From the UHGV virus genome UHGV-0115609: a stretch of DNA of 34,273 nt; one strand, written 5' to 3'. A model generated the notes under the pieces. That model had not been told where the DNA came from and ran no database searches. It saw nothing but the letters and a program-made list of their open reading frames with translations. Below, in pieces: positions 4,981 through 26,535 of this stretch (the first letter of the stretch is position 1; each line of letters begins with the position of its first letter). The translations under genes and the position numbers were made by a program. Source of the stretch: a virus.

Positions 4981-5185
4981 AAATACAATGATAAGTATTT
5001 ACTTACTTATCTTTTATGTATAAGATGACTTTGTTTTCGTTGAGACGCGACTGTTTGAACTTAAATACAAGTGCAAACGAAGAAGTCTATCTGGCAGTAG
5101 CCTAATAAGCCAAACACCAGCGAGGTCAGTTTCCAGCCTCGTTACCGAAATGGGACACACTGAGCGAGTGTGATTGCAGAACGCA

Positions 5186-5758: not shown

Positions 5759-5833
5759 GATGGTGTAGCTCAGCGGTAGAGCAGTTGGCTGTTAACCAAC
5801 TGGTCGGTGGTTCGAATCCACCCACCATCGCCA
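5759..5833 (+). tRNA. tRNA-Asn (anticodon GTT)
   Basis: Cloverleaf by hand: acceptor GATGGTG/CACCATC, D-arm GCTCAGCGGTAGAGC, anticodon stem GTTGG/CCAAC with loop CTGTTAA, T-arm GGTGG-TTCGAAT-CCACC, discriminator G, encoded CCA. Confidence 0.85.
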
Positions 5834-5838
5834 ATTTA

Positions 5839-5925
5839 GGGGAGTTAGTCCGTAGGGGCAGCGGGGTAGACTGTAAATCTACTGTCATTGCGACTCGGGT
5901 GGTTCGACTCCATCACTCCCCACCA
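5839..5925 (+). tRNA. tRNA-Tyr (anticodon GTA), type II with long variable arm
   Basis: Acceptor GGGGAGT/ACTCCCC, anticodon stem GTAGA/TCTAC with loop CTGTAAA, long variable arm, T-loop TTCGACT, encoded CCA. The anticodon arm closely resembles E. coli tRNA-Tyr. Confidence 0.75.
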
Positions 5926-5929
5926 AATT

Positions 5930-6005
5930 GCCGGTTTAGCTCAGTTGGTAGAGCGCCTGCCTTGTAAGCAGGATGTCAGCGGTTCGATCCCGTTAACCGG
6001 CACCA
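5930..6005 (+). tRNA. tRNA-Thr (anticodon TGT)
   Basis: Acceptor GCCGGTT/AACCGGC, D-arm AGCTCAGTTGGTAGAGC, anticodon stem CCTGC/GCAGG with loop CTTGTAA, T-loop TTCGATC, encoded CCA. Confidence 0.8.
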
Positions 6006-6006
6006 A

Positions 6007-6095
6007 CACAACAGGTAAGAGCATTGGGCGAATCGGCGATACTGACCCACAAGCCCGTAAATCGATAGAGTCAGACCAGTGCTCTTACCGTTGTG
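6007..6095 (+). ncRNA. Long hairpin H2 starting 1 nt after the tRNA-Thr CCA
   Basis: Left arm CACAACAGGTAAGAGCATTGG (6007-6027) pairs with right arm CCAGTGCTCTTACCGTTGTG (6076-6095), with one bulge and one mismatch. Confidence 0.45.
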
Positions 6096-6145
6096 AGGAA
6101 GTGCAGCTCTTTGAAGCAACCAGAAGATAAGCATCTGGCTTCACA

Positions 6146-6228
6146 ACACAACGATAAGATCATTACGGTTAATCGTCGTTCATGTGCACAATGACTGGTC
6201 GAAAGGTAGTGATCTTACCGTTGTGGTG
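6146..6228 (+). ncRNA. Long hairpin H3, paralogous to H2
   Basis: Left arm CACAACGATAAGATCATTAC pairs with right arm GGTAGTGATCTTACCGTTGTGGTG; shares the CACAAC...GTAAGA...CGTTGTG framework with H2. Confidence 0.4.
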
Positions 6229-6369
6229 GATTCGCAGACTGATGCGATAGCTTTCTTGGATGTTAGGGAAATGCGGCCGCAAATCTTCCCTTTCGCGAGC
6301 GGTGATCGTCCGTAGTCCTAATTGGCTGCACCGTATGCCGGAGATTCAGTACCGGCCACCACAACGGCC

Positions 6370-6456
6370 GGAGAGTAGGGAGCATGGTGCTCAAGCGGTC
6401 TTGAAAACCGTCCCATTGCGCAAGCGATGATGGTTCGATTCCATTACTCTCCGCCA
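6370..6456 (+). tRNA. tRNA-Ser (anticodon TGA), type II with long variable arm
   Basis: Acceptor GGAGAGT/ACTCTCC, anticodon stem GCGGT/ACCGT with loop CTTGAAA, long variable arm, T-loop TTCGATT, discriminator G, encoded CCA. Confidence 0.75.
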
Positions 6457-11636: not shown

Positions 11637-11731
11637 ACAAAACAGCCTTAACGATAAGTAACCACTTACGATAGATAATGATATATTTATATAAGAAGTT
11701 GAACGCTCATTAGAAAACAAAGGAAAAACGC

Positions 11732-18351: not shown

Positions 18352-18605
18352 TCGCCTCCGATAATAGTATTCTATTCACAGTGTTGACATCTGTCAACGG
18401 CGACTGAATTTCATCCGTTCATGCCACACCACCATCCATCTCATGTATGTGACCTAAAGATGGTCAGCACAGCTTACCAAAATAAGACAACTAATTATCT
18501 TCGGTGATCTCAATATCTTCCCCTGAACAAAGTTGACATGACGCCATAAACCCGTTCTCTGTTTGATATAATTGATACAGATTTTATAAGTAGGAACCTA
18601 TTAGA

Positions 18606-19037: not shown

Positions 19038-19154
19038 TTTTTGATAGATAATAAGTAAGTACTGATCTATCATTTAACAGCTCGAAAGAGCCACGAATGA
19101 ACGAAAGCCCAACGCGCATAGCGCCATCGGCCAAATCACAACAAGGAGAAACAC

Positions 19155-21456: not shown

Positions 21457-23796
21457 ATGGCAAAAGGAAAATCCGCACTGGCACTTGCTCTGAAAAAGAA
21501 AATCGGTAGCAACGACGAAATTCAGAAAGTAACTCATTGGATTGACACAGGCTTTCCTCCGTTAAACAAAGCTATTTCCGGTCGTTACGATGGCGGTTTC
21601 CCATGTGGTCGTATCGTAGAAGTATTCGGGCCACCAAGCGCGGGGAAATGTGTTACCGCAGACACCATGCTGCTGACGGAGCGTGGAATGGTAACAGTGA
21701 AAGAACTGTTTGAGATTGAGGGGCACAAAGCAACATGCACTACTCGCGATGTAGAGCATAACGTTGGACTCATCAATGAAAATGGCGTGATAGAGAAGAC
21801 CTCACACCTGACATGGAACAACCGTCGCAAATTCAAGCGTATTAAGCTGGCATCAGGCGGTTATATCGAGGCTACGTTCCGTCACCCAATCCGTGTGGTT
21901 GACGACTTAGGTAATGTCGTCTGGCGACATGCTGAAAAAATCAGTGTAGGCGACACGATTCCTTCAATGGTTGGCACACATCAATTCGGCGATCAGCACC
22001 TGGATGCCAATATCGCAAAACTGATGGGCTATTTAATTGCTGACGGATACGTGGCCTCTGAAAATTCAGTGAATTTTTCTAACACAGATCCTTTCATCAA
22101 GGATGAGTACTACCGCCTCATTTCGCTGGTATCAGACAAGATGCCAGTTACGAGAAAACATAACGGCTCGGAAGACCATGTGCTGTTTAGCAAAGAGGTG
22201 CGTTCGCTGCTTTTTAAAGAGTATGGTCTGGAGTATGAGAAAGCTGCTGGCAAGCAGGTTCCGTTGAGTGTGCGTCGCGCCAATAGCGAGGCTCAAATTG
22301 CATTCCTTCGCGGCTACTTTGAGCTGGAATGCCACGTCAATGATGGTCGCTGCATTGAGGTTGTGAGCGCGAGTGGGCTGCTGCTACAGCAAATTCGCCT
22401 CATGCTCCTGAATCTGGGGATTACGTCAACTATCTCTGAAAAACACGTCGCGGGTTATGAAAATACATATTACCGGCTGTCATTCAGTGGCTCTAATTAC
22501 GACCTTTTTCTGTCAACGATTGGTTTCGAATCTCCGGCACGTTTATCAGTGGCAACCAAACGGGACATTGGTTTTGACCGCACTTACTCAGGCTATGTTC
22601 CGCACATCAGCGGCTTAGTGAAATCACTCTACGAGTCGCTCACCAAGACCACCCGTGAAGACTACGCTCTGGTAGACCACGTTATTGGCCGCGGCGATCG
22701 TGTCGGAATAGACAAACTGCGAGAAATCTATGTCTCCTTCATTGGCAGAAAGAATCGTTTTAACGAGCATCTGTTTGCACAACTGGCAGCGGTAATTGGC
22801 TCTAACTTGTTCTACGACGAAGTCGTGGCTATTGAGGAAGGTGAAGCACCAACGTTCGACGTAGCGATGCCGGAAACACACTCTTTCTGGTCTAACGGGA
22901 TTATCAGCCACAACACATTCCTTGCAACAGCAGCGATGATCTCCGCTCAAAAACAAGATGGTCTGGCGGTATTCCTCGATCATGAAAACAGTTTTGACGT
23001 TGGCCTGGCTGTAGCCAATGGCCTGAACGCAGATGAGGATGACGGTCAGTGGGTATACAAGCAGCCAGATACCTTCGAAGACTCTGTAGAGTTGATCGGC
23101 ACAATACTTAAATTGGTTCGTGATGAAGAGCTTATCCCCGAATCAGCACCTATCTGTATCGTGGCTGACTCTCTTGCGTCTATGGTTCCGAACTCCAAAG
23201 CCGAGAAGTTCGAAAAGATGGCTGAAGGCACTGCCAAAGACAAAGATCAGCTAAACATGAACGACAATACGGCACTGGCTCGTGCGACGAGTGCGAACTT
23301 CCCTACTCTGGCTTTGTGGGCACGCAAATACAACGCCTGCATCATCTTCTTGAATCAGGTTCGCACAAAAATCGGTGTAATGTTTGGCGACCCTACTACG
23401 TCGCCAGGTGGAGATTCACCGAAGTTTTACGCTTCTGTGCGCATCCGTCTCGGTGCATCGGTGATGAAGGATGGGAAAGAGAAGATCGGCCAGGACGTAG
23501 GCGCAGAATGCATCAAAAACAAAGTTGCACCACCGTATGGCAAATGCACCTGGAAATTCTACTTCGATCCTACTCGTGGCCTCGACGTTATCGAGTCGCT
23601 CGTCGAGTACATGCTGGAAGAAGGATACCTGCCAAAGAACGCCAGCGGGCGAGTTGAAATTGGTGACAAGAAATACACCAAATCGCAGATCGTCGACATG
23701 TATCGGGAGAAGCCATTAGCAGAAATCATTGCTGCGTTACAGGCGATAGATGACCGACGAGAGAAGACATCACCAACAGAAGAACTAGAAGATTAA
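21457..23796 (+). CDS. recA: RecA-family recombinase precursor containing an intein
   Basis: N-extein ...PCGRIVEVFGPPSAGK and C-extein TFLATAAM...AVFLDHENSFD...QPDTFEDS...IFLNQVRTKIGVMFGDPTTSPGGDSPKFYASVRIRL are near-colinear with bacterial RecA. The P-loop GPPSAGK/T is split by a 422-aa insertion. Confidence 0.9.
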   Translation: MAKGKSALALALKKKIGSNDEIQKVTHWIDTGFPPLNKAISGRYDGGFPCGRIVEVFGPPSAGKCVTADTMLLTERGMVTVKELFEIEGHKATCTTRDVEHNVGLINENGVIEKTSHLTWNNRRKFKRIKLASGGYIEATFRHPIRVVDDLGNVVWRHAEKISVGDTIPSMVGTHQFGDQHLDANIAKLMGYLIADGYVASENSVNFSNTDPFIKDEYYRLISLVSDKMPVTRKHNGSEDHVLFSKEVRSLLFKEYGLEYEKAAGKQVPLSVRRANSEAQIAFLRGYFELECHVNDGRCIEVVSASGLLLQQIRLMLLNLGITSTISEKHVAGYENTYYRLSFSGSNYDLFLSTIGFESPARLSVATKRDIGFDRTYSGYVPHISGLVKSLYESLTKTTREDYALVDHVIGRGDRVGIDKLREIYVSFIGRKNRFNEHLFAQLAAVIGSNLFYDEVVAIEEGEAPTFDVAMPETHSFWSNGIISHNTFLATAAMISAQKQDGLAVFLDHENSFDVGLAVANGLNADEDDGQWVYKQPDTFEDSVELIGTILKLVRDEELIPESAPICIVADSLASMVPNSKAEKFEKMAEGTAKDKDQLNMNDNTALARATSANFPTLALWARKYNACIIFLNQVRTKIGVMFGDPTTSPGGDSPKFYASVRIRLGASVMKDGKEKIGQDVGAECIKNKVAPPYGKCTWKFYFDPTRGLDVIESLVEYMLEEGYLPKNASGRVEIGDKKYTKSQIVDMYREKPLAEIIAALQAIDDRREKTSPTEELED
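21649..22914 (+). mobile_element. Intein (class 1) with LAGLIDADG homing-endonuclease domain, inserted in the RecA Walker A motif
   Basis: Begins with Cys (CVTADTMLL, block A), has a TxxH block B (ATFRHP) and ends ...HSFWSNGIISHN followed by Thr (+1). Internal LAGLIDADG motifs KLMGYLIADGYV and FLRGYFELECHV. Removing it restores GPPSAGKT. Confidence 0.85.
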
Positions 23797-23799
23797 TTA

Positions 23800-23827
23800 T
23801 CAGGCGTCCAAACGGACGCCTTTATTG
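23800..23827 (+). terminator. Rho-independent terminator after recA
   Basis: AGGCGTCC-AAAC-GGACGCCT followed by TTATTG; the same stem sequence recurs at 20201 and 24939. Confidence 0.75.
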
Positions 23828-23889
23828 TATGTTGAAAATGTATAAGCACTTACTTATCATTAGCACACAATAACCACATAGGAAAACAC

Positions 23890-24078
23890 ATGATCAAACT
23901 CTATCTTATGGCAGTAGTTACAGGTCTATCTGTAGTTTTCATCTACTGTTTGCTGGTTCCGTCGCTGATCTCTGCTAAAAGCGACATTGCCGTAATGCTT
24001 GGAATCATCGTTGCTTTTGGTGCTCCTGTGATCGGGTTTATTGCAGGTCGTAAGTTTCTAAAGTCACTCATCAATTAG
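23890..24078 (+). CDS. Small membrane protein (62 aa), possible NfeD-like partner of the downstream SPFH protein
   Basis: Two hydrophobic helices (LMAVVTGLSVVFIYCLLV, VMLGIIVAFGAPVIGFIAG); located 15 nt upstream of the SPFH gene. Confidence 0.5.
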   Translation: MIKLYLMAVVTGLSVVFIYCLLVPSLISAKSDIAVMLGIIVAFGAPVIGFIAGRKFLKSLIN

Positions 24079-24093
24079 AAGGAGAAGTAAGTA

Positions 24094-24924
24094 ATGAAGA
24101 AAGGTTTACTTGCAGTTGCTCTGGCGGCTATTTGCACAATGGGTCTTACTGGCTGCGATCGCGTGGAGCCTGGATACGTTGGCATCAAAGTAAACAAATT
24201 AGGTGAAGACAAAGGGATTGGTGAAGTGGTTGGCGTTGGTCGCCAATGGACAGGTCTTAACACCGAACTTTACGTATTCCCGACCTTCAAACAAATGAAG
24301 ACCTACGACGAGCCGTTCACATTCCAGATGAGTGACGGTACTGCTATTGGTCACAAAATTGGCGTTGCGTATCTGGTTAATCGTGACAAGGTAACGACGG
24401 TGTTCCAGACCTATCGCAAAGGCGTAGACGATATCACCGAATCAGATCTGCGTCAGAAAATTGCCGACTCTCTAAACCGTTTGGCCAGCCGTATGACCAC
24501 TGACTCATTTATCGACGGTGGTAAGGCACAATTGCTGGACAACGCACTGAAAGATATTCAGAAAGAGATGTCTCCGGTTGGTATTGAGGTACTGAGCCTG
24601 TCATGGGTTGGAAAGCCTGATTACCCAAAAACTGTCATTGAATCTATTAACGCCAAAGTAACGGCTAACCAGCGTACTCTGCAACGTCAGCAGGAAGTCG
24701 AACAGCGTAAAGCTGAGGCGAATATGCTACGTGAACAGGCTAATGGTGAAGCTGATGCTATCCGTGCTCGTGCGCAAGCAGAAGCAGACGCCATTCGTCT
24801 GCGCGGTGAAGCTCTGCGTCAAAACCCGAACGTTATGGAACTGGAAGCCATCAATAAATGGAATGGCCAGTTACCGCAGTACATGACTCAAGGGGCTAAC
24901 ACTCCTTTCATTACAGTGAAATAA
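24094..24924 (+). CDS. SPFH/band-7 (stomatin/prohibitin-like) domain lipoprotein
   Basis: Lipoprotein signal with lipobox LTGC; C-terminal Ala/Glu-rich helical region REQANGEADAIRARAQAEADAIRLRGEALRQNPNVMELEAINKW typical of SPFH proteins. Confidence 0.65.
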   Translation: MKKGLLAVALAAICTMGLTGCDRVEPGYVGIKVNKLGEDKGIGEVVGVGRQWTGLNTELYVFPTFKQMKTYDEPFTFQMSDGTAIGHKIGVAYLVNRDKVTTVFQTYRKGVDDITESDLRQKIADSLNRLASRMTTDSFIDGGKAQLLDNALKDIQKEMSPVGIEVLSLSWVGKPDYPKTVIESINAKVTANQRTLQRQQEVEQRKAEANMLREQANGEADAIRARAQAEADAIRLRGEALRQNPNVMELEAINKWNGQLPQYMTQGANTPFITVK

Positions 24925-24938
24925 CTCCCCTAAAAAGT

Positions 24939-24967
24939 TCAGGCGTCCAGTTGGACGCCTTTTTTAT
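24939..24967 (+). terminator. Rho-independent terminator
   Basis: AGGCGTCC-AGTT-GGACGCCT followed by TTTTTTATC. Confidence 0.8.
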
Positions 24968-25811: not shown

Positions 25812-25991
25812 ATGAAGATTTTTATTGAATACTTGTTACTCATCGTTTCAATAGCTTTTGTCATCGACTGCATTTTCACCGGTGTCATTCGTAAAGTCTT
25901 TTCCCCGGTGAACGACGTAGTCATAAACGCTTTGGCTATCGTGCTCGTATTTAATTCAGCATTTGATGTAATCAAAGAGGTGGCAGCATGA
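25812..25991 (+). CDS. Small membrane protein (59 aa; below the ORF-track cutoff)
   Basis: Hand translation MKIFIEYLLLIVSIAFVIDCIFTGVIRKVFSPVNDVVINALAIVLVFNSAFDVIKEVAA; its stop overlaps the next start (ATGA). Confidence 0.4.
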   Translation: MKIFIEYLLLIVSIAFVIDCIFTGVIRKVFSPVNDVVINALAIVLVFNSAFDVIKEVAA

Positions 25992-26323
25992 AGGCCATCC
26001 CATTCGCTCTGTTGTTCCTTTCCTCGATCGTTGTGGCCGACACCACTGTTTATCAGTGTGAAATGTCTGTAGCCGACGTTAAGAATGGCGCTCTTACCGA
26101 CGTCATAAAAGCACCATATGGAGCGATGGTCGTAGACAGCGGCGACCAGTTCTATGTTGTGCGTGACGATCGAGTGTTGTCATCCCCATATCTCACAAAT
26201 CGTAATGGCAAATTAACCGGCGTCGGAGAAGACCACTTCGTATACAACAAATACAAGGGCTTCTATGGCGTTCACGCTTCTCAGCAAAGCTACCTTTTCG
26301 ATGACTGCAAGGAGGTTGGATAA
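25988..26323 (+). CDS. Secreted hypothetical protein with N-terminal signal peptide (111 aa)
   Basis: Signal-like MKAIPFALLFLSSIVVADT; RBS AGAGGTGG upstream. Confidence 0.55.
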   Translation: MKAIPFALLFLSSIVVADTTVYQCEMSVADVKNGALTDVIKAPYGAMVVDSGDQFYVVRDDRVLSSPYLTNRNGKLTGVGEDHFVYNKYKGFYGVHASQQSYLFDDCKEVG

Positions 26324-26535
26324 TGGCATTAACACTGGCAGGTCTGGAAATCGAGAAAACAAGCGGCTACTGGCGTGCTAAGGGTTTCAAGCAGCCTGGC
26401 ATTCTTGAGCGTCTGGAACGTGAAGATGGGTATATCGTCCACCAGCGGCGTGAATGGCGTATGTACGATCCAGAAACAGGAAAACTGACTACAAAAGCCG
26501 GAACACTTTGGGGCCTGTTGAAGAAAATACACTAA
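26323..26535 (+). CDS. Hypothetical protein (70 aa)
   Basis: ORF coupled to the upstream gene (ATAATGG overlap). Confidence 0.45.
   Translation: MALTLAGLEIEKTSGYWRAKGFKQPGILERLEREDGYIVHQRREWRMYDPETGKLTTKAGTLWGLLKKIH

Follow-up and report, generated by a model that had tools for sequence, protein, structure and literature searches.

The two genes that follow recA in the viral genome UHGV-0115609 (34,273 nucleotides, referred to here as the window) are predicted to be an autonomous transcription unit encoding a two-component, periplasm-facing scaffold of the inner membrane, a reading to which a probability of about one half is given. The pair consists of an ORF of 62 aa (23890-24078) and an ORF of 276 aa (24094-24924), both on the + strand, and represents a known kind of protein in a variant two-gene architecture. 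The intein-bearing recA adjoins the pair directly upstream and a DUF7238 gene directly downstream. The original prediction gave the same coordinates and placed the pair between recA and hypothetical genes. The window is an SSU5-like phage-plasmid with 99.2% identity to phage Cyrano/pLF82 of Escherichia coli LF82, in agreement with its earlier description as a phage-plasmid, and both genes are already annotated in Cyrano.

The 276-aa protein (24094-24924, + strand) is confirmed as a member of the SPFH/Band-7 family, as had been predicted. A profile search gave a match to Pfam Band_7 (PF01145) with E=2.6e-30 and 106.2 bits (gathering cut-off 23.6), spanning profile positions 2-176 of 176, and the fold matches agree with it. 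The protein comprises a signal peptide (residues 1-20), SPFH1/2 domains (~21-176) and a long helix (179-243), and carries at its C-terminus the conserved motif K-W-N-G-x-L-P, with W256, G258 and P261 invariant. In the AlphaFold2 monomer model (pLDDT 82, with low confidence for the C-terminal 25 residues), strands occupy residues 21-95, helices and a strand residues 97-176, and a 65-residue helix residues 179-243. The best full-length Foldseek matches of this model were HflC, HflK, prohibitin and erlin at about 1e-13; stomatin and flotillin were also matched over the full length, and QmcA was a weaker match (6e-8). A sequence match to the coiled coil of prohibitin-2 was found as well. HflK/C, prohibitin and erlin, the best matches of the predicted fold, are SPFH families that face away from the cytoplasm.

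The earlier designation of this protein as a lipoprotein was supported by a match to PHROG 200 'lipoprotein' at 3e-108 and by its N-terminus, MKKGLLAVALAAICTMGLTG-C21-D22, a canonical lipobox with Asp at position +2. In the sequence-pattern test (lipobox pattern [LVI][ASTVI][GAS]C), the N-terminus reads MKK-hydrophobic-L18-T-G-C21-D22, that is, the lipobox LTGC followed by D, with the Cys21 codon at 24154-24156 on the + strand. Asp at +2 is the Lol-avoidance signal, which retains lipoproteins in the inner membrane in Enterobacterales. Among close relatives, 97/120 have a lipobox continuing as C-D-R, while several sublineages carry Tyr, Trp or Phe in place of the lipobox Cys; such variants would be uncleaved signal anchors and thus be held in the inner membrane only. 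By sequence pattern, the 276-aa protein has the features of a lipoprotein retained in the inner membrane.

The 62-aa product (23890-24078, + strand), preceded by a ribosome-binding-type sequence AGGA, is a putative inner-membrane protein with two hydrophobic helices, a turn between them and a tail rich in Arg/Lys after helix 2. It matched PHROG 1130 'membrane protein' at 1.1e-23 and no Pfam family, which bears out the short two-helix membrane protein originally described upstream of the SPFH gene. The turn P24-S-L-I-S28-A-K-S (P-x-L-I-S) is conserved, and its Pro and Ser are invariant in 62/62 partner sequences. In SSU5, P88, phiP27, S6 and KpS8, the gene immediately before the SPFH gene encodes a homologue of the partner. 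In bacterial loci, which were found by a scan of genome contigs with a 10-sequence alignment, an HMM of the small protein located the partner immediately in front of the SPFH gene in 57 out of 80 cases, with a single matching site per locus, always on the same strand and always upstream. This linkage spans Enterobacterales to Leptospira, Bacteroidota and Actinomycetota, and also virulent phages. N-terminal fusions of the partner to the SPFH protein in which the lipobox is kept were found in at least 14 of 150 cluster representatives. The turn of the partner, its upstream linkage in bacterial loci and the fusions in at least 14 lineages are reported here for the first time. One fusion (P0130) has the reversed order, which is hard to square with the topology proposed below. 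The Shine-Dalgarno sequence of the SPFH gene, AAGGAG (24079..24084, + strand), lies 5' of the start at 24094, and in relatives it falls within the 3' end of a 66-aa partner ORF, which suggests translational coupling of the two genes.

The pair is bounded by two hairpins on the + strand. The upstream hairpin (23802..23821), AGGCGTCC-AAAC-GGACGCCT followed by TTTATT, probably terminates recA and marks the left edge of the cassette, and the downstream hairpin (24941..24960), AGGCGTCC-AGTT-GGACGCCT followed by TTTTTTAT, is an intrinsic terminator at its right edge. GGCGTCC-N4-GGACGCC occurs exactly twice in the 34-kb window (23803-23820 and 24942-24959; 0 expected by chance), and no further GGCGTCC hairpin with a loop of 2-12 nt was found elsewhere in the window, so the 'reused' hairpins of the original prediction are used twice, at both ends of the cassette. 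Each has an 8-bp stem and folds at -15.1 kcal/mol, with a z of about -4.65 (-4.66 for the upstream hairpin). Between the upstream hairpin and the small gene lies a promoter-like site, TTGAAA-17-TATCAT (23832..23860, + strand; 10/12 consensus matches), which is conserved in five SSU5-like elements and 100% identical to that of Cyrano. Its spacer contains an imperfect palindrome, ATAAGCA-CT-TACTTAT (23842-23857, + strand), and comparable palindromes precede the uvsY-like and ssb-like genes (9 strand matches versus 0.24 expected). From these patterns, 23832-23860 may act as a promoter and the palindrome as its operator.

Both hairpins and the promoter-like site are kept in SSU5 and in the Kluyvera, Buttiauxella and Y. 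pestis elements; the upstream stem shows a compensatory change in Y. pestis (GGCGCCC/GGGCGCC), and the downstream hairpin is invariant across SSU5-like elements. An empty site is found in at least one natural plasmid, which carries recA, one hairpin and the right-hand flank but not the pair; natural deletion variants of this kind indicate that the pair is dispensable for plasmid maintenance. The same pair is also found in unrelated phages that lack the GGCGTCC hairpins. Together with the transcription described below, which is uncoupled from that of the neighbours, these observations sustain the view that the pair is a self-contained, hairpin-bracketed cassette. In having its own promoter-like site and terminator and in being separable from its neighbours, the pair resembles a phage moron.

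Expression was taken from published RNA-seq data of LF82 (log2(5+FPKM)), in which the regulatory DNA is identical to that of the window. From LB to MB6, a column label read as macrophage at 6 h, the small gene increased from log2 2.3, the floor value in LB-grown lysogens, to 7.6 and the SPFH gene from 3.7 to 7.3. The pair was thus about 10- to 40-fold upregulated at MB6, while recA, ssb and the exonuclease gene were flat; recA stayed at log2 4.05 and the gene downstream of the pair at 4.0, the signal falling from 7.3 to 4.0 across the downstream hairpin. This shows that the pair is transcribed independently of both neighbours in LF82. Expression in the lysogen with lytic genes repressed is a further mark of a moron; in LB overnight cultures the pair was not above the 5-fold cut-off. 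Some structural genes (major capsid protein, tail) also increased at MB6, and the increase of the pair could therefore reflect partial lytic induction and not a stress response.

The SPFH gene is widespread and under constraint. A homologue was present in 377 of 50,697 phage records, an occurrence in 377 phage genomes that is newly recorded here, and many of these phages are strictly virulent. P2-like, Stx, N4-like and jumbo phages have copies with 60-79% amino-acid identity, and the family also occurs in phages of environmental bacteria (Caulobacter, Erwinia and crAss-like phages). Compared with SSU5, amino-acid identity is 94% and DNA identity about 78%, with 120 synonymous versus 16 non-synonymous codon differences in the SPFH gene. 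In Dyella and Leptospira, the module is a vertically inherited chromosomal gene pair.

In the proposed mechanism, the unit is arranged as terminator, own promoter, small gene, SPFH gene and terminator. The 276-aa protein would be exported and lipid-modified at Cys21, and Asp at +2 would keep it in the inner membrane, so that the SPFH domains, the coiled-coil helix and the C-terminal cap would face the periplasm. By analogy with HflK/C, prohibitin and erlin, the protein is expected to form a ring or cage by which part of the inner membrane is set apart. The 62-aa protein would be a dedicated transmembrane subunit with both ends in the cytoplasm and its invariant Pro/Ser turn on the periplasmic side, close to the SPFH domain. 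It is probably present at 1:1 with the SPFH protein, whose anchor is a lipid, and would contribute the membrane span missing from that protein. Virulent as well as temperate phages would have captured this bacterial module, which they carry among early or DNA-metabolism genes; in this phage-plasmid it is near-silent in LB-grown lysogens, and its expression rises in macrophages, where the cell is under stress. As its most likely role, the scaffold would stabilise the inner membrane and its protein quality control, or divide them into compartments, during stress or phage production. Of this picture, the data show the fold, the anchor motif, the linkage to the partner, the edges of the cassette and the pattern of expression, while assembly into a cage, stoichiometry, localisation and physiological role are inferred. 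In a bolder form, the two proteins would make up an SPFH system of a type not described before and found across phyla, with a prohibitin-like periplasmic cage on a lipid anchor and a membrane subunit bearing the invariant Pro/Ser turn. Hundreds of virulent and temperate phages would use it early in infection to insulate the host inner membrane, for example by keeping it energised against depolarising abortive-infection effectors or premature holin firing, so that it would be a general counter-measure of phages and not a housekeeping scaffold; this extension is regarded as a long shot.

The original prediction named membrane remodelling, superinfection exclusion and protease regulation as candidate roles. 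Another explanation is that the protein mimics HflK/C and captures or modulates the host protease FtsH, with a cage that encloses FtsH or competes with HflKC; the turnover of CII/CIII-like or Xis-like regulators or of host substrates would then be shifted, tuning the lysis-lysogeny decision or the phage yield. HflK/C and prohibitin, the top fold matches, partner with AAA+ FtsH-type proteases (PMC2636767) and share an orientation towards the periplasm or intermembrane space, a conserved host target would be in keeping with the strong purifying selection seen in unrelated phages, and the idea has been put forward repeatedly in phage genome papers (PMC8540360, PMC10269572, PMC4936722). The HflK/HflC cage of E. 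coli (PDB 7vhp, 7vhq, 7wi3, 9cz2) was the top Foldseek match (9e-14 to 2e-13), and it shares with the phage protein the SPFH1/2 domains, the long coiled-coil helix, the C-terminal cap segment, the N-terminal inner-membrane anchor and a bulk predicted in the periplasm. However, identity to HflK/C is only 16-18%, and HflK/HflC orthology was rejected, the NCBIfam equivalog models for HflK (TIGR01933) and HflC (TIGR01932) giving 18.7 bits (cut-off 159.4) and 30.2 bits (cut-off 134.4). The unit also holds a single SPFH gene without the paired K and C arrangement, uses a lipid anchor where HflK/C use a transmembrane helix, and has a two-helix partner that HflK/C lack; the link to FtsH is drawn here by analogy. 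The family is moreover common in strictly virulent phages, which make no lysogeny decision, and all-against-all clustering of neighbours within 4 kb at 70 loci revealed no conserved third gene that might hint at FtsH or another protease as a client. FtsH mimicry is thus considered rather unlikely.

Superinfection exclusion, in which an inner-membrane complex facing the periplasm would block incoming phage genomes in the manner of T4 Imm and Sp or prophage Sie proteins, is judged clearly unlikely. Blocks to DNA entry act where the complex is predicted to lie, on the periplasmic side of the inner membrane, the pair is found among early genes in virulent phages, as imm and sp are in T4, and PHROG 1130 is assigned to the category 'moron, auxiliary metabolic gene and host takeover'. 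Against this, the near-silence of the pair in LB-grown LF82 lysogens argues against constitutive exclusion, neither protein matched a known anti-phage defence system in PADLOC-DB at E<=0.1, exclusion genes engaged in an arms race are not typically so highly conserved among unrelated phages, and the module is vertically inherited on the Dyella and Leptospira chromosomes. Lysogenic conversion by a prophage lipoprotein that is released in outer-membrane vesicles (OMVs) and sensed by TLR1/2 has a precedent in PM0222 of Pasteurella multocida, an HflK/C-like prophage SPFH protein of 25-35 kDa reported in OMVs, whose deletion attenuates virulence and slows growth (PMC9872710); it was the sole experimentally studied prophage SPFH protein found by literature search. 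PM0222 is of similar size to the phage protein and is likened to it by description, not by sequence. Expression of the LF82 pair was highest inside macrophages at 6 h, as the MB6 label is read, but Asp at +2 and the Cys-to-Tyr/Trp/Phe variants favour inner-membrane retention over export in OMVs, and members of the family abound in virulent phages that infect environmental bacteria. Such a role is highly improbable. The classical NfeD-stomatin operon, to which the original prediction likened the pair, is hardly credible as a family assignment. The two-gene layout of a membrane protein and an SPFH protein is that of QmcA-YbbJ, but the NfeD profile (PF01957) had no match in the 62-aa partner at E<=0.01 and none at E<=1 in three phage partners and five natural fusion proteins, which refutes NfeD membership of the partner at the family level. 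With 62 aa and two helices, the partner has no room for the C-terminal OB-fold domain that NfeD proteins carry with or without a ClpP-type protease domain, the predicted orientation is periplasmic, and QmcA was a weaker fold match than HflK/C, prohibitin and erlin.

The preferred reading, an inner-membrane scaffold with a dedicated small subunit, retains a likely functional analogy to the SPFH-NfeD pairs (QmcA-YbbJ, PDB 8z5g; FloA-NfeD of S. aureus, PMC11222466), which have the same operon of scaffold and partner, natural gene fusions and probable co-assembly at fixed stoichiometry. They differ from the phage pair in the NfeD/OB domain of the partner and in a cytoplasmic orientation. Prohibitins, which include eukaryotic PHB1/2, were an equal fold match (1.3e-13 for 8rrh_B) and are likewise oriented away from the cytoplasm. 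The likeness to the prokaryotic prohibitin 'SPFH4' (Hinderhofer et al. 2009, PMC2636767) comes from the fold match and from NCBI names, distant SPFH homologues being called 'prohibitin family protein'; that survey mentions no lipoprotein anchor, phage copies or small partner. Annotated phage genes of the same family include PHROG 200 and PHROG 1130 members, SSU5_061/062, CYRAN_56/57, P88, phiP27 L05 and S6 gp044/045, those of the SSU5-like elements (SSU5_061/062, CYRAN_56/57) being the same locus. Database records name the two genes separately, some of them wrongly as 'serine protease', 'transposase' or 'RIIB lysis inhibitor', and a literature search on phage SPFH function returned annotations and speculation only, with no description of the partner linkage.

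The structures of SPFH scaffolds (prohibitin, HflK/C, stomatin, flotillin) are well understood, while their bacterial functions are obscure, and for twenty years genome papers have recorded phage copies to which no role was assigned. Deletion of SPFH genes in P. aeruginosa caused no pronounced phenotypes (PMC13086221), and a clear phenotype may therefore be hard to find here as well. The pair offers a compact, tractable case: the two genes form a unit whose boundaries are defined, deletion variants occur naturally, expression data have been published for the pathogen AIEC LF82, and unrelated virulent phages carry homologues at 60-79% identity. A small partner confirmed as a true subunit would be an alternative to NfeD and would reveal the way in which an SPFH protein with a lipid anchor is linked to the bilayer. 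Protection or partitioning of the inner membrane during infection, were the module to provide it, would account for the large number of phages with the pair. In bacteria, the genes around the pair reflect lineage-specific synteny, with BlaR1/BlaI-like genes in Dyella and sdh in Leptospira, and, in several MAGs of the FCB group, a putative SufC-like ATPase, as read from its sequence.

The pair is directly supported as a two-component unit, consisting of an exported, membrane-anchored prohibitin/HflK-like SPFH protein and a dedicated two-helix partner whose connecting turn would face the same compartment. The small partner ORF (23890-24078, + strand, 62 aa) is preceded by an AGGA Shine-Dalgarno sequence and the SPFH ORF (24094-24924, + strand, 276 aa) by AAGGAG at 24079-24084; both share one reading frame, and the spacer between them is TAG-AAG-GAG-AAG-TAA-GTA alone. 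The SPFH protein matched Pfam Band_7 (PF01145) with E=2.6e-30 (106 bits, cut-off 23.6), which places it in the SPFH superfamily, and PHROG 200 'lipoprotein' at 3e-108, and its N-terminus, MKKGLLAVALAAICTMGLTG-C21-D22, is a textbook lipobox whose +2 residue is Asp. The partner is formed by two hydrophobic helices with a short connecting turn and matched PHROG 1130 'membrane protein' (E=1.1e-23); Pfam and NCBIfam profile searches placed it in no family. With both ORFs in place, these matches and the lipobox confirm the original prediction of a band-7 lipoprotein with an upstream small membrane protein.

Escherichia phage Cyrano, the plasmid pLF82 of AIEC strain LF82, shares 99.2% identity with the region; identity is 99.7% to an E. 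coli pig plasmid and ~78% to Salmonella phage SSU5. Since counterparts are already annotated in relatives such as SSU5 (SSU5_061 and SSU5_062), the two genes as such are not newly found. A DNA-level match was present in 314 of 5,426 complete E. coli genomes, at 226 places on plasmids and 101 on chromosomes. In a codon comparison with SSU5, the SPFH gene showed 120 synonymous and 16 non-synonymous differences; amino-acid identity was 94% for the SPFH protein, 95% for RecA, 83% for the SSB-like protein and 58% for the small partner. Judged by these comparisons, the SPFH protein is under strong purifying selection, with RecA-level conservation exceeding that of the SSB-like protein. The small ORF ends at TAG (24076-24078), where Cyrano has TCG (Ser); nearly all listed relatives have 66 aa ending in ...SKEK, and the stretch otherwise differs from Cyrano by I2F alone. 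The upstream recA (21457-23796, + strand, 779 aa) is interrupted by an intein bearing a LAGLIDADG homing endonuclease, and its product matched Pfam RecA, Intein_splicing and LAGLIDADG_3; the SSU5 RecA (358 aa) is without intein and the exteins are 95% identical.

A partner HMM built from 18 sequences was run on six-frame translations of 80 bacterial loci encoding SPFH relatives. In 57 loci there was exactly one matching segment per locus, without exception upstream of the SPFH gene and on its strand, with no further match elsewhere in the ~12-kb loci; the segment abuts or runs into the SPFH gene in 55 and lies ~0.8 kb upstream in two. The 57 loci come from Enterobacterales, Xenorhabdus, Morganella, Dyella and other Xanthomonadales, Leptospira, Saprospirales, Muribaculaceae, an Iamiaceae actinobacterium, Dependentiae and a methanotroph. 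When counterparts from SSU5, P2-like P88 and others are aligned, the turn is conserved as P-x-(L/M)-(I/V)-S-(A/S)-x-(S/D). Among the 64 aligned hits, the turn Pro and Ser are invariant (62 of 62 turn-covering sequences), and helix 2 contains a Gly in 59 of 63 and is followed mostly by Arg/Lys. By the positive-inside rule, both partner ends would be cytoplasmic and the invariant turn periplasmic, on the side of the SPFH domain. Its database relatives are all named 'hypothetical protein' and have no Pfam domain.

At least 14 natural fusions were found among 150 representatives of 50%-identity clusters, in the order two-helix domain, positively charged linker, signal-peptide-like helix with retained lipobox and SPFH domain, and a continuous partner-SPFH ORF also occurs in 2 of the 80 genome loci. 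In the representative P0130 the small domain is at the C-terminus instead, a topology difficult to square with the proposed model, and no weight is placed on it. An internal lipobox Cys is seen in the fusions P0125, P0135, P0144, P0146, P0152, P0166, P0168, P0169, P0171, P0186 and P0192, which might be lipidated and cleaved into two polypeptides or might use an internal start.

In Enterobacterales, Asp at +2 is a Lol-avoidance (inner-membrane retention) signal. The lipobox is followed by C-D-R in 97 of 120 close relatives, and its Cys is replaced by Tyr, Trp or Phe in several sublineages (P0002-P0012, P0075, P0076, P0081, P0082), P0002-P0012 being an abundant E. coli phage-plasmid sublineage. 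In the Cys-less variants, lipidation or cleavage at that site is impossible and an uncleaved signal anchor is predicted. The free swap between a Cys-Asp lipid anchor and a signal anchor argues that the protein works at the periplasmic face of the inner membrane.

The AlphaFold2 monomer model of the SPFH protein (58-sequence alignment, mean pLDDT 82) has its beta-rich SPFH1 part at residues 21-95 and its alpha/beta SPFH2 part at 97-176; a single long helix (179-243), a short helix (245-254) and a low-confidence tail follow. In a Foldseek search of the PDB, HflC and HflK (7vhq), human prohibitin (8rrh) and erlin (9vvg, 9vvj) matched over the full length with E 9e-14 to 6e-13 and 16-18% identity, and stomatin (~1e-10), flotillin (~1e-8) and QmcA (6e-8) matched less well. 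In the best three fold families the SPFH domain lies away from the cytoplasm (periplasm, intermembrane space, ER lumen), and the model thus fits an exported lipoprotein. Sequence-profile E-values to solved structures were 4e-6 for QmcA and ~1e-4 for HflK/C and prohibitin-2, and at this level the family is remote from every solved structure. A C-terminal family signature, K-W-(N/D)-G-x-L-P, has invariant W256, G258 and P261 in two alignments, one of 40 and one of 58 diverse members. The equivalog models of HflK and HflC scored 18.7 and 30.2 bits, below their cut-offs of 159 and 134, and orthology to either was rejected; the protein plausibly belongs to the little-studied 'prokaryotic prohibitin' group, as NCBI labels its homologues.

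The pair is flanked by two hairpins, GGCGTCC-N4-GGACGCC, at 23803-23820 and 24942-24959, each with an 8-bp stem (-15.1 kcal/mol, z ~-4.65) and a following T-run. Exactly two such hairpins occur in the window against a chance expectation of 0, and no other copy with a loop of 2-12 nt was found window-wide. A promoter-like site, TTGAAA-17-TATCAT (23832-23860), lies 3' of the left hairpin. Hairpins and promoter-like site are conserved in SSU5, Kluyvera, Buttiauxella and Y. pestis elements, the left hairpin of Y. pestis showing a compensatory double change (GGCGCCC...GGGCGCC). When the two cassette flanks were joined and used as a query, with one match required to span >=80%, joined flanks were found in 7 of 482 matching plasmids, one of which, pYPE3-114k (NZ_CP041451.1; L092 760-900), was inspected. 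Here the recA stop is followed by a single hairpin, GGCGTCC-ACA-GGACGCC, and then by the DUF7238 gene; the right flank is identical to the window and the SPFH pair is absent, indicating that the hairpins mark the exact limits of the unit and that plasmid maintenance does not depend on it. Since SSU5-like elements carry the pair throughout the group, the simpler, though unproven, reading would be that it was deleted between the two repeats.

Published expression data for LF82 (Table S1 of PMC9928086, log2(5+FPKM); one strain, one study) apply to an identical control region, as the Cyrano terminator-promoter-5'UTR DNA is 100% identical to the window. As we interpret the column labels, BLB is LB overnight, B1/B6 are bacteria alone at 1 h/6 h and MB1/MB6 are macrophage-associated bacteria at 1 h/6 h. 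The partner gene CYRAN_56 had values of 2.32/2.32 (BLB), 4.98/4.89 (B1), 3.48/3.09 (B6), 3.48/5.06 (MB1) and 7.61/7.70 (MB6), and the SPFH gene CYRAN_57 had 4.30/3.02, 5.01/5.24, 5.00/4.76, 5.60/5.32 and 7.25/7.42, respectively. Across all conditions the neighbours stayed flat (recA 3.1-4.2, downstream gene CYRAN_58 2.3-4.2; PMC9928086), indicating that the pair is transcribed independently of both, which fits its own promoter and terminators. The self-contained cassette of the original prediction is therefore borne out by the conserved hairpins and promoter-like site, the empty-site plasmid and this expression pattern. The pair is absent from the moron list of PMC9928086 (>=5-fold above background in LB). 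The rise at MB6 was shared by CYRAN_46, CYRAN_60-62, the major capsid gene and a tail gene, and not by ssb, exonuclease and recA; because of this co-rise, stress response and partial lytic induction are not separable, and the rise of the pair may reflect either. CYRAN_60-62 (25812-26535, + strand), encoding a hydrophobic protein of 59 aa, a 111-aa protein whose N-terminus resembles a signal peptide, and a Cra-like protein, reached 8.3-9.0 at MB6, above the SPFH pair, with the intervening CYRAN_58 low.

Homologues of the SPFH protein were found by tblastn in 377 of 50,697 phage records. Some carriers are temperate, among them P2-like P88, Burkholderia phi1026b and Stx phages (phiP27, for instance), and many are strictly virulent, for example N4-like Schitoviridae (Erwinia S6, Shigella Moo19), Vequintavirinae (Klebsiella KpS8), Ounavirinae (Erwinia phiEa104), Pseudomonas Bruynoghevirus (U47, Clew-1), Caulobacter phiCbK-like phages, a crAss-like phage, a Lak megaphage and jumbo Salmonella phages. 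Enterobacterial copies share 60-79% amino-acid identity between unrelated phage groups. The partner lies directly upstream of the SPFH gene in S6 (gp044) and phiP27 (unannotated there), one gene away in KpS8 (gp225) and two genes away in U47, and gives only a weak signal in phiEa104 and the crAss-like phage. In virulent phages the pair is located among early/DNA-metabolism genes (ligase, exonuclease, DNA polymerase, dUTPase), and in P88 in the early operon between cox and a replication gene. In Dyella and Leptospira it has a conserved chromosomal gene neighbourhood that lacks phage genes, suggesting that the module is bacterial in origin and was repeatedly captured by phages. No third gene conserved beside the pair across taxa was found. 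In six MAG loci from Chloroflexota, Ignavibacteria, Kapaibacteria and Bacteroidota (L060, L062, L065, L074, L080, L083), the SPFH gene lies <=4 kb from an ATPase read as SufC-like from its sequence, and in Dyella it adjoins a BlaR1/BlaI-like sensor-repressor pair; both neighbourhoods probably represent lineage synteny. Databases name members of this SPFH family inconsistently and in part wrongly ('serine protease', 'transposase', 'RIIB lysis inhibitor', 'protein QmcA', 'HflK family protein', 'lipoprotein').

All solved full-length SPFH proteins, namely HflK/C, prohibitin, erlin, stomatin, flotillin and QmcA-YbbJ, form rings or cages fencing a membrane patch (PMC13086221), and by analogy the phage protein would form such a ring or cage around an inner-membrane patch on the periplasmic side. 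The partner would supply the transmembrane palisade, for which HflK/C and prohibitin use their own N-terminal helices, and the natural fusions would resemble just such a one-chain protomer. The likeliest role would be to stabilise or compartmentalise the inner membrane and its protein quality control under stress or phage production. For architecture and role taken jointly we estimate a probability of about 0.5, the architecture alone being more probable and the role less so.

Among the alternatives, capture or modulation of FtsH by the phage unit would fit the best structural relatives and the strong conservation, but a lysogeny-control purpose is odd for virulent phages, and we consider it unlikely. 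Previous phage papers treat these genes as annotation or with FtsH/lysogeny speculation (PMC8540360, PMC10269572, PMC4936722, PMC1524935), one of them calling the role unclear since obligately lytic phages carry the gene. The location would also be right for superinfection exclusion, which is nevertheless distinctly improbable given near-silence of the pair in lysogens, its extreme conservation and the core-like chromosomal copies. It is very doubtful that the product is an OMV-borne lipoprotein directed at the host like PM0222, a possibly related prophage HflK/C-like protein of Pasteurella multocida (PMC9872710), because the inner-membrane retention signals contradict it. A true NfeD-stomatin operon can practically be set aside: three phage partners and five fusion proteins gave no PF01957 match even at E<=1, and 62 residues are too few for the NfeD OB fold. 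The resemblance to such operons in the original prediction holds for the operon logic, a membrane partner with an SPFH protein, but not for NfeD membership.

Compared with the known annotation and superfamily, the partner linkage, the partner-SPFH fusions and the anchor swapping are apparently new; no description of them was found in a literature search of open-access full texts. An imperfect palindrome, ATAAGTA-N2-TACTTAT, lies inside the cassette promoter spacer (23842-23857) and also at 4991-5010, 11654-11669, 18586-18601 and 19051-19066. The recurrences lie in front of the uvsY-like gene and the gp32-like ssb gene, in the gap separating two cob-related genes, and ahead of the tRNA cluster (5759-6456, + strand; Asn-GTT, Tyr-GTA, Thr-TGT and Ser-TGA, four genes). 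With 9 strand matches at <=3 mismatches against 0.24 expected, the palindrome may serve early or middle units of the phage as a common operator or promoter element.
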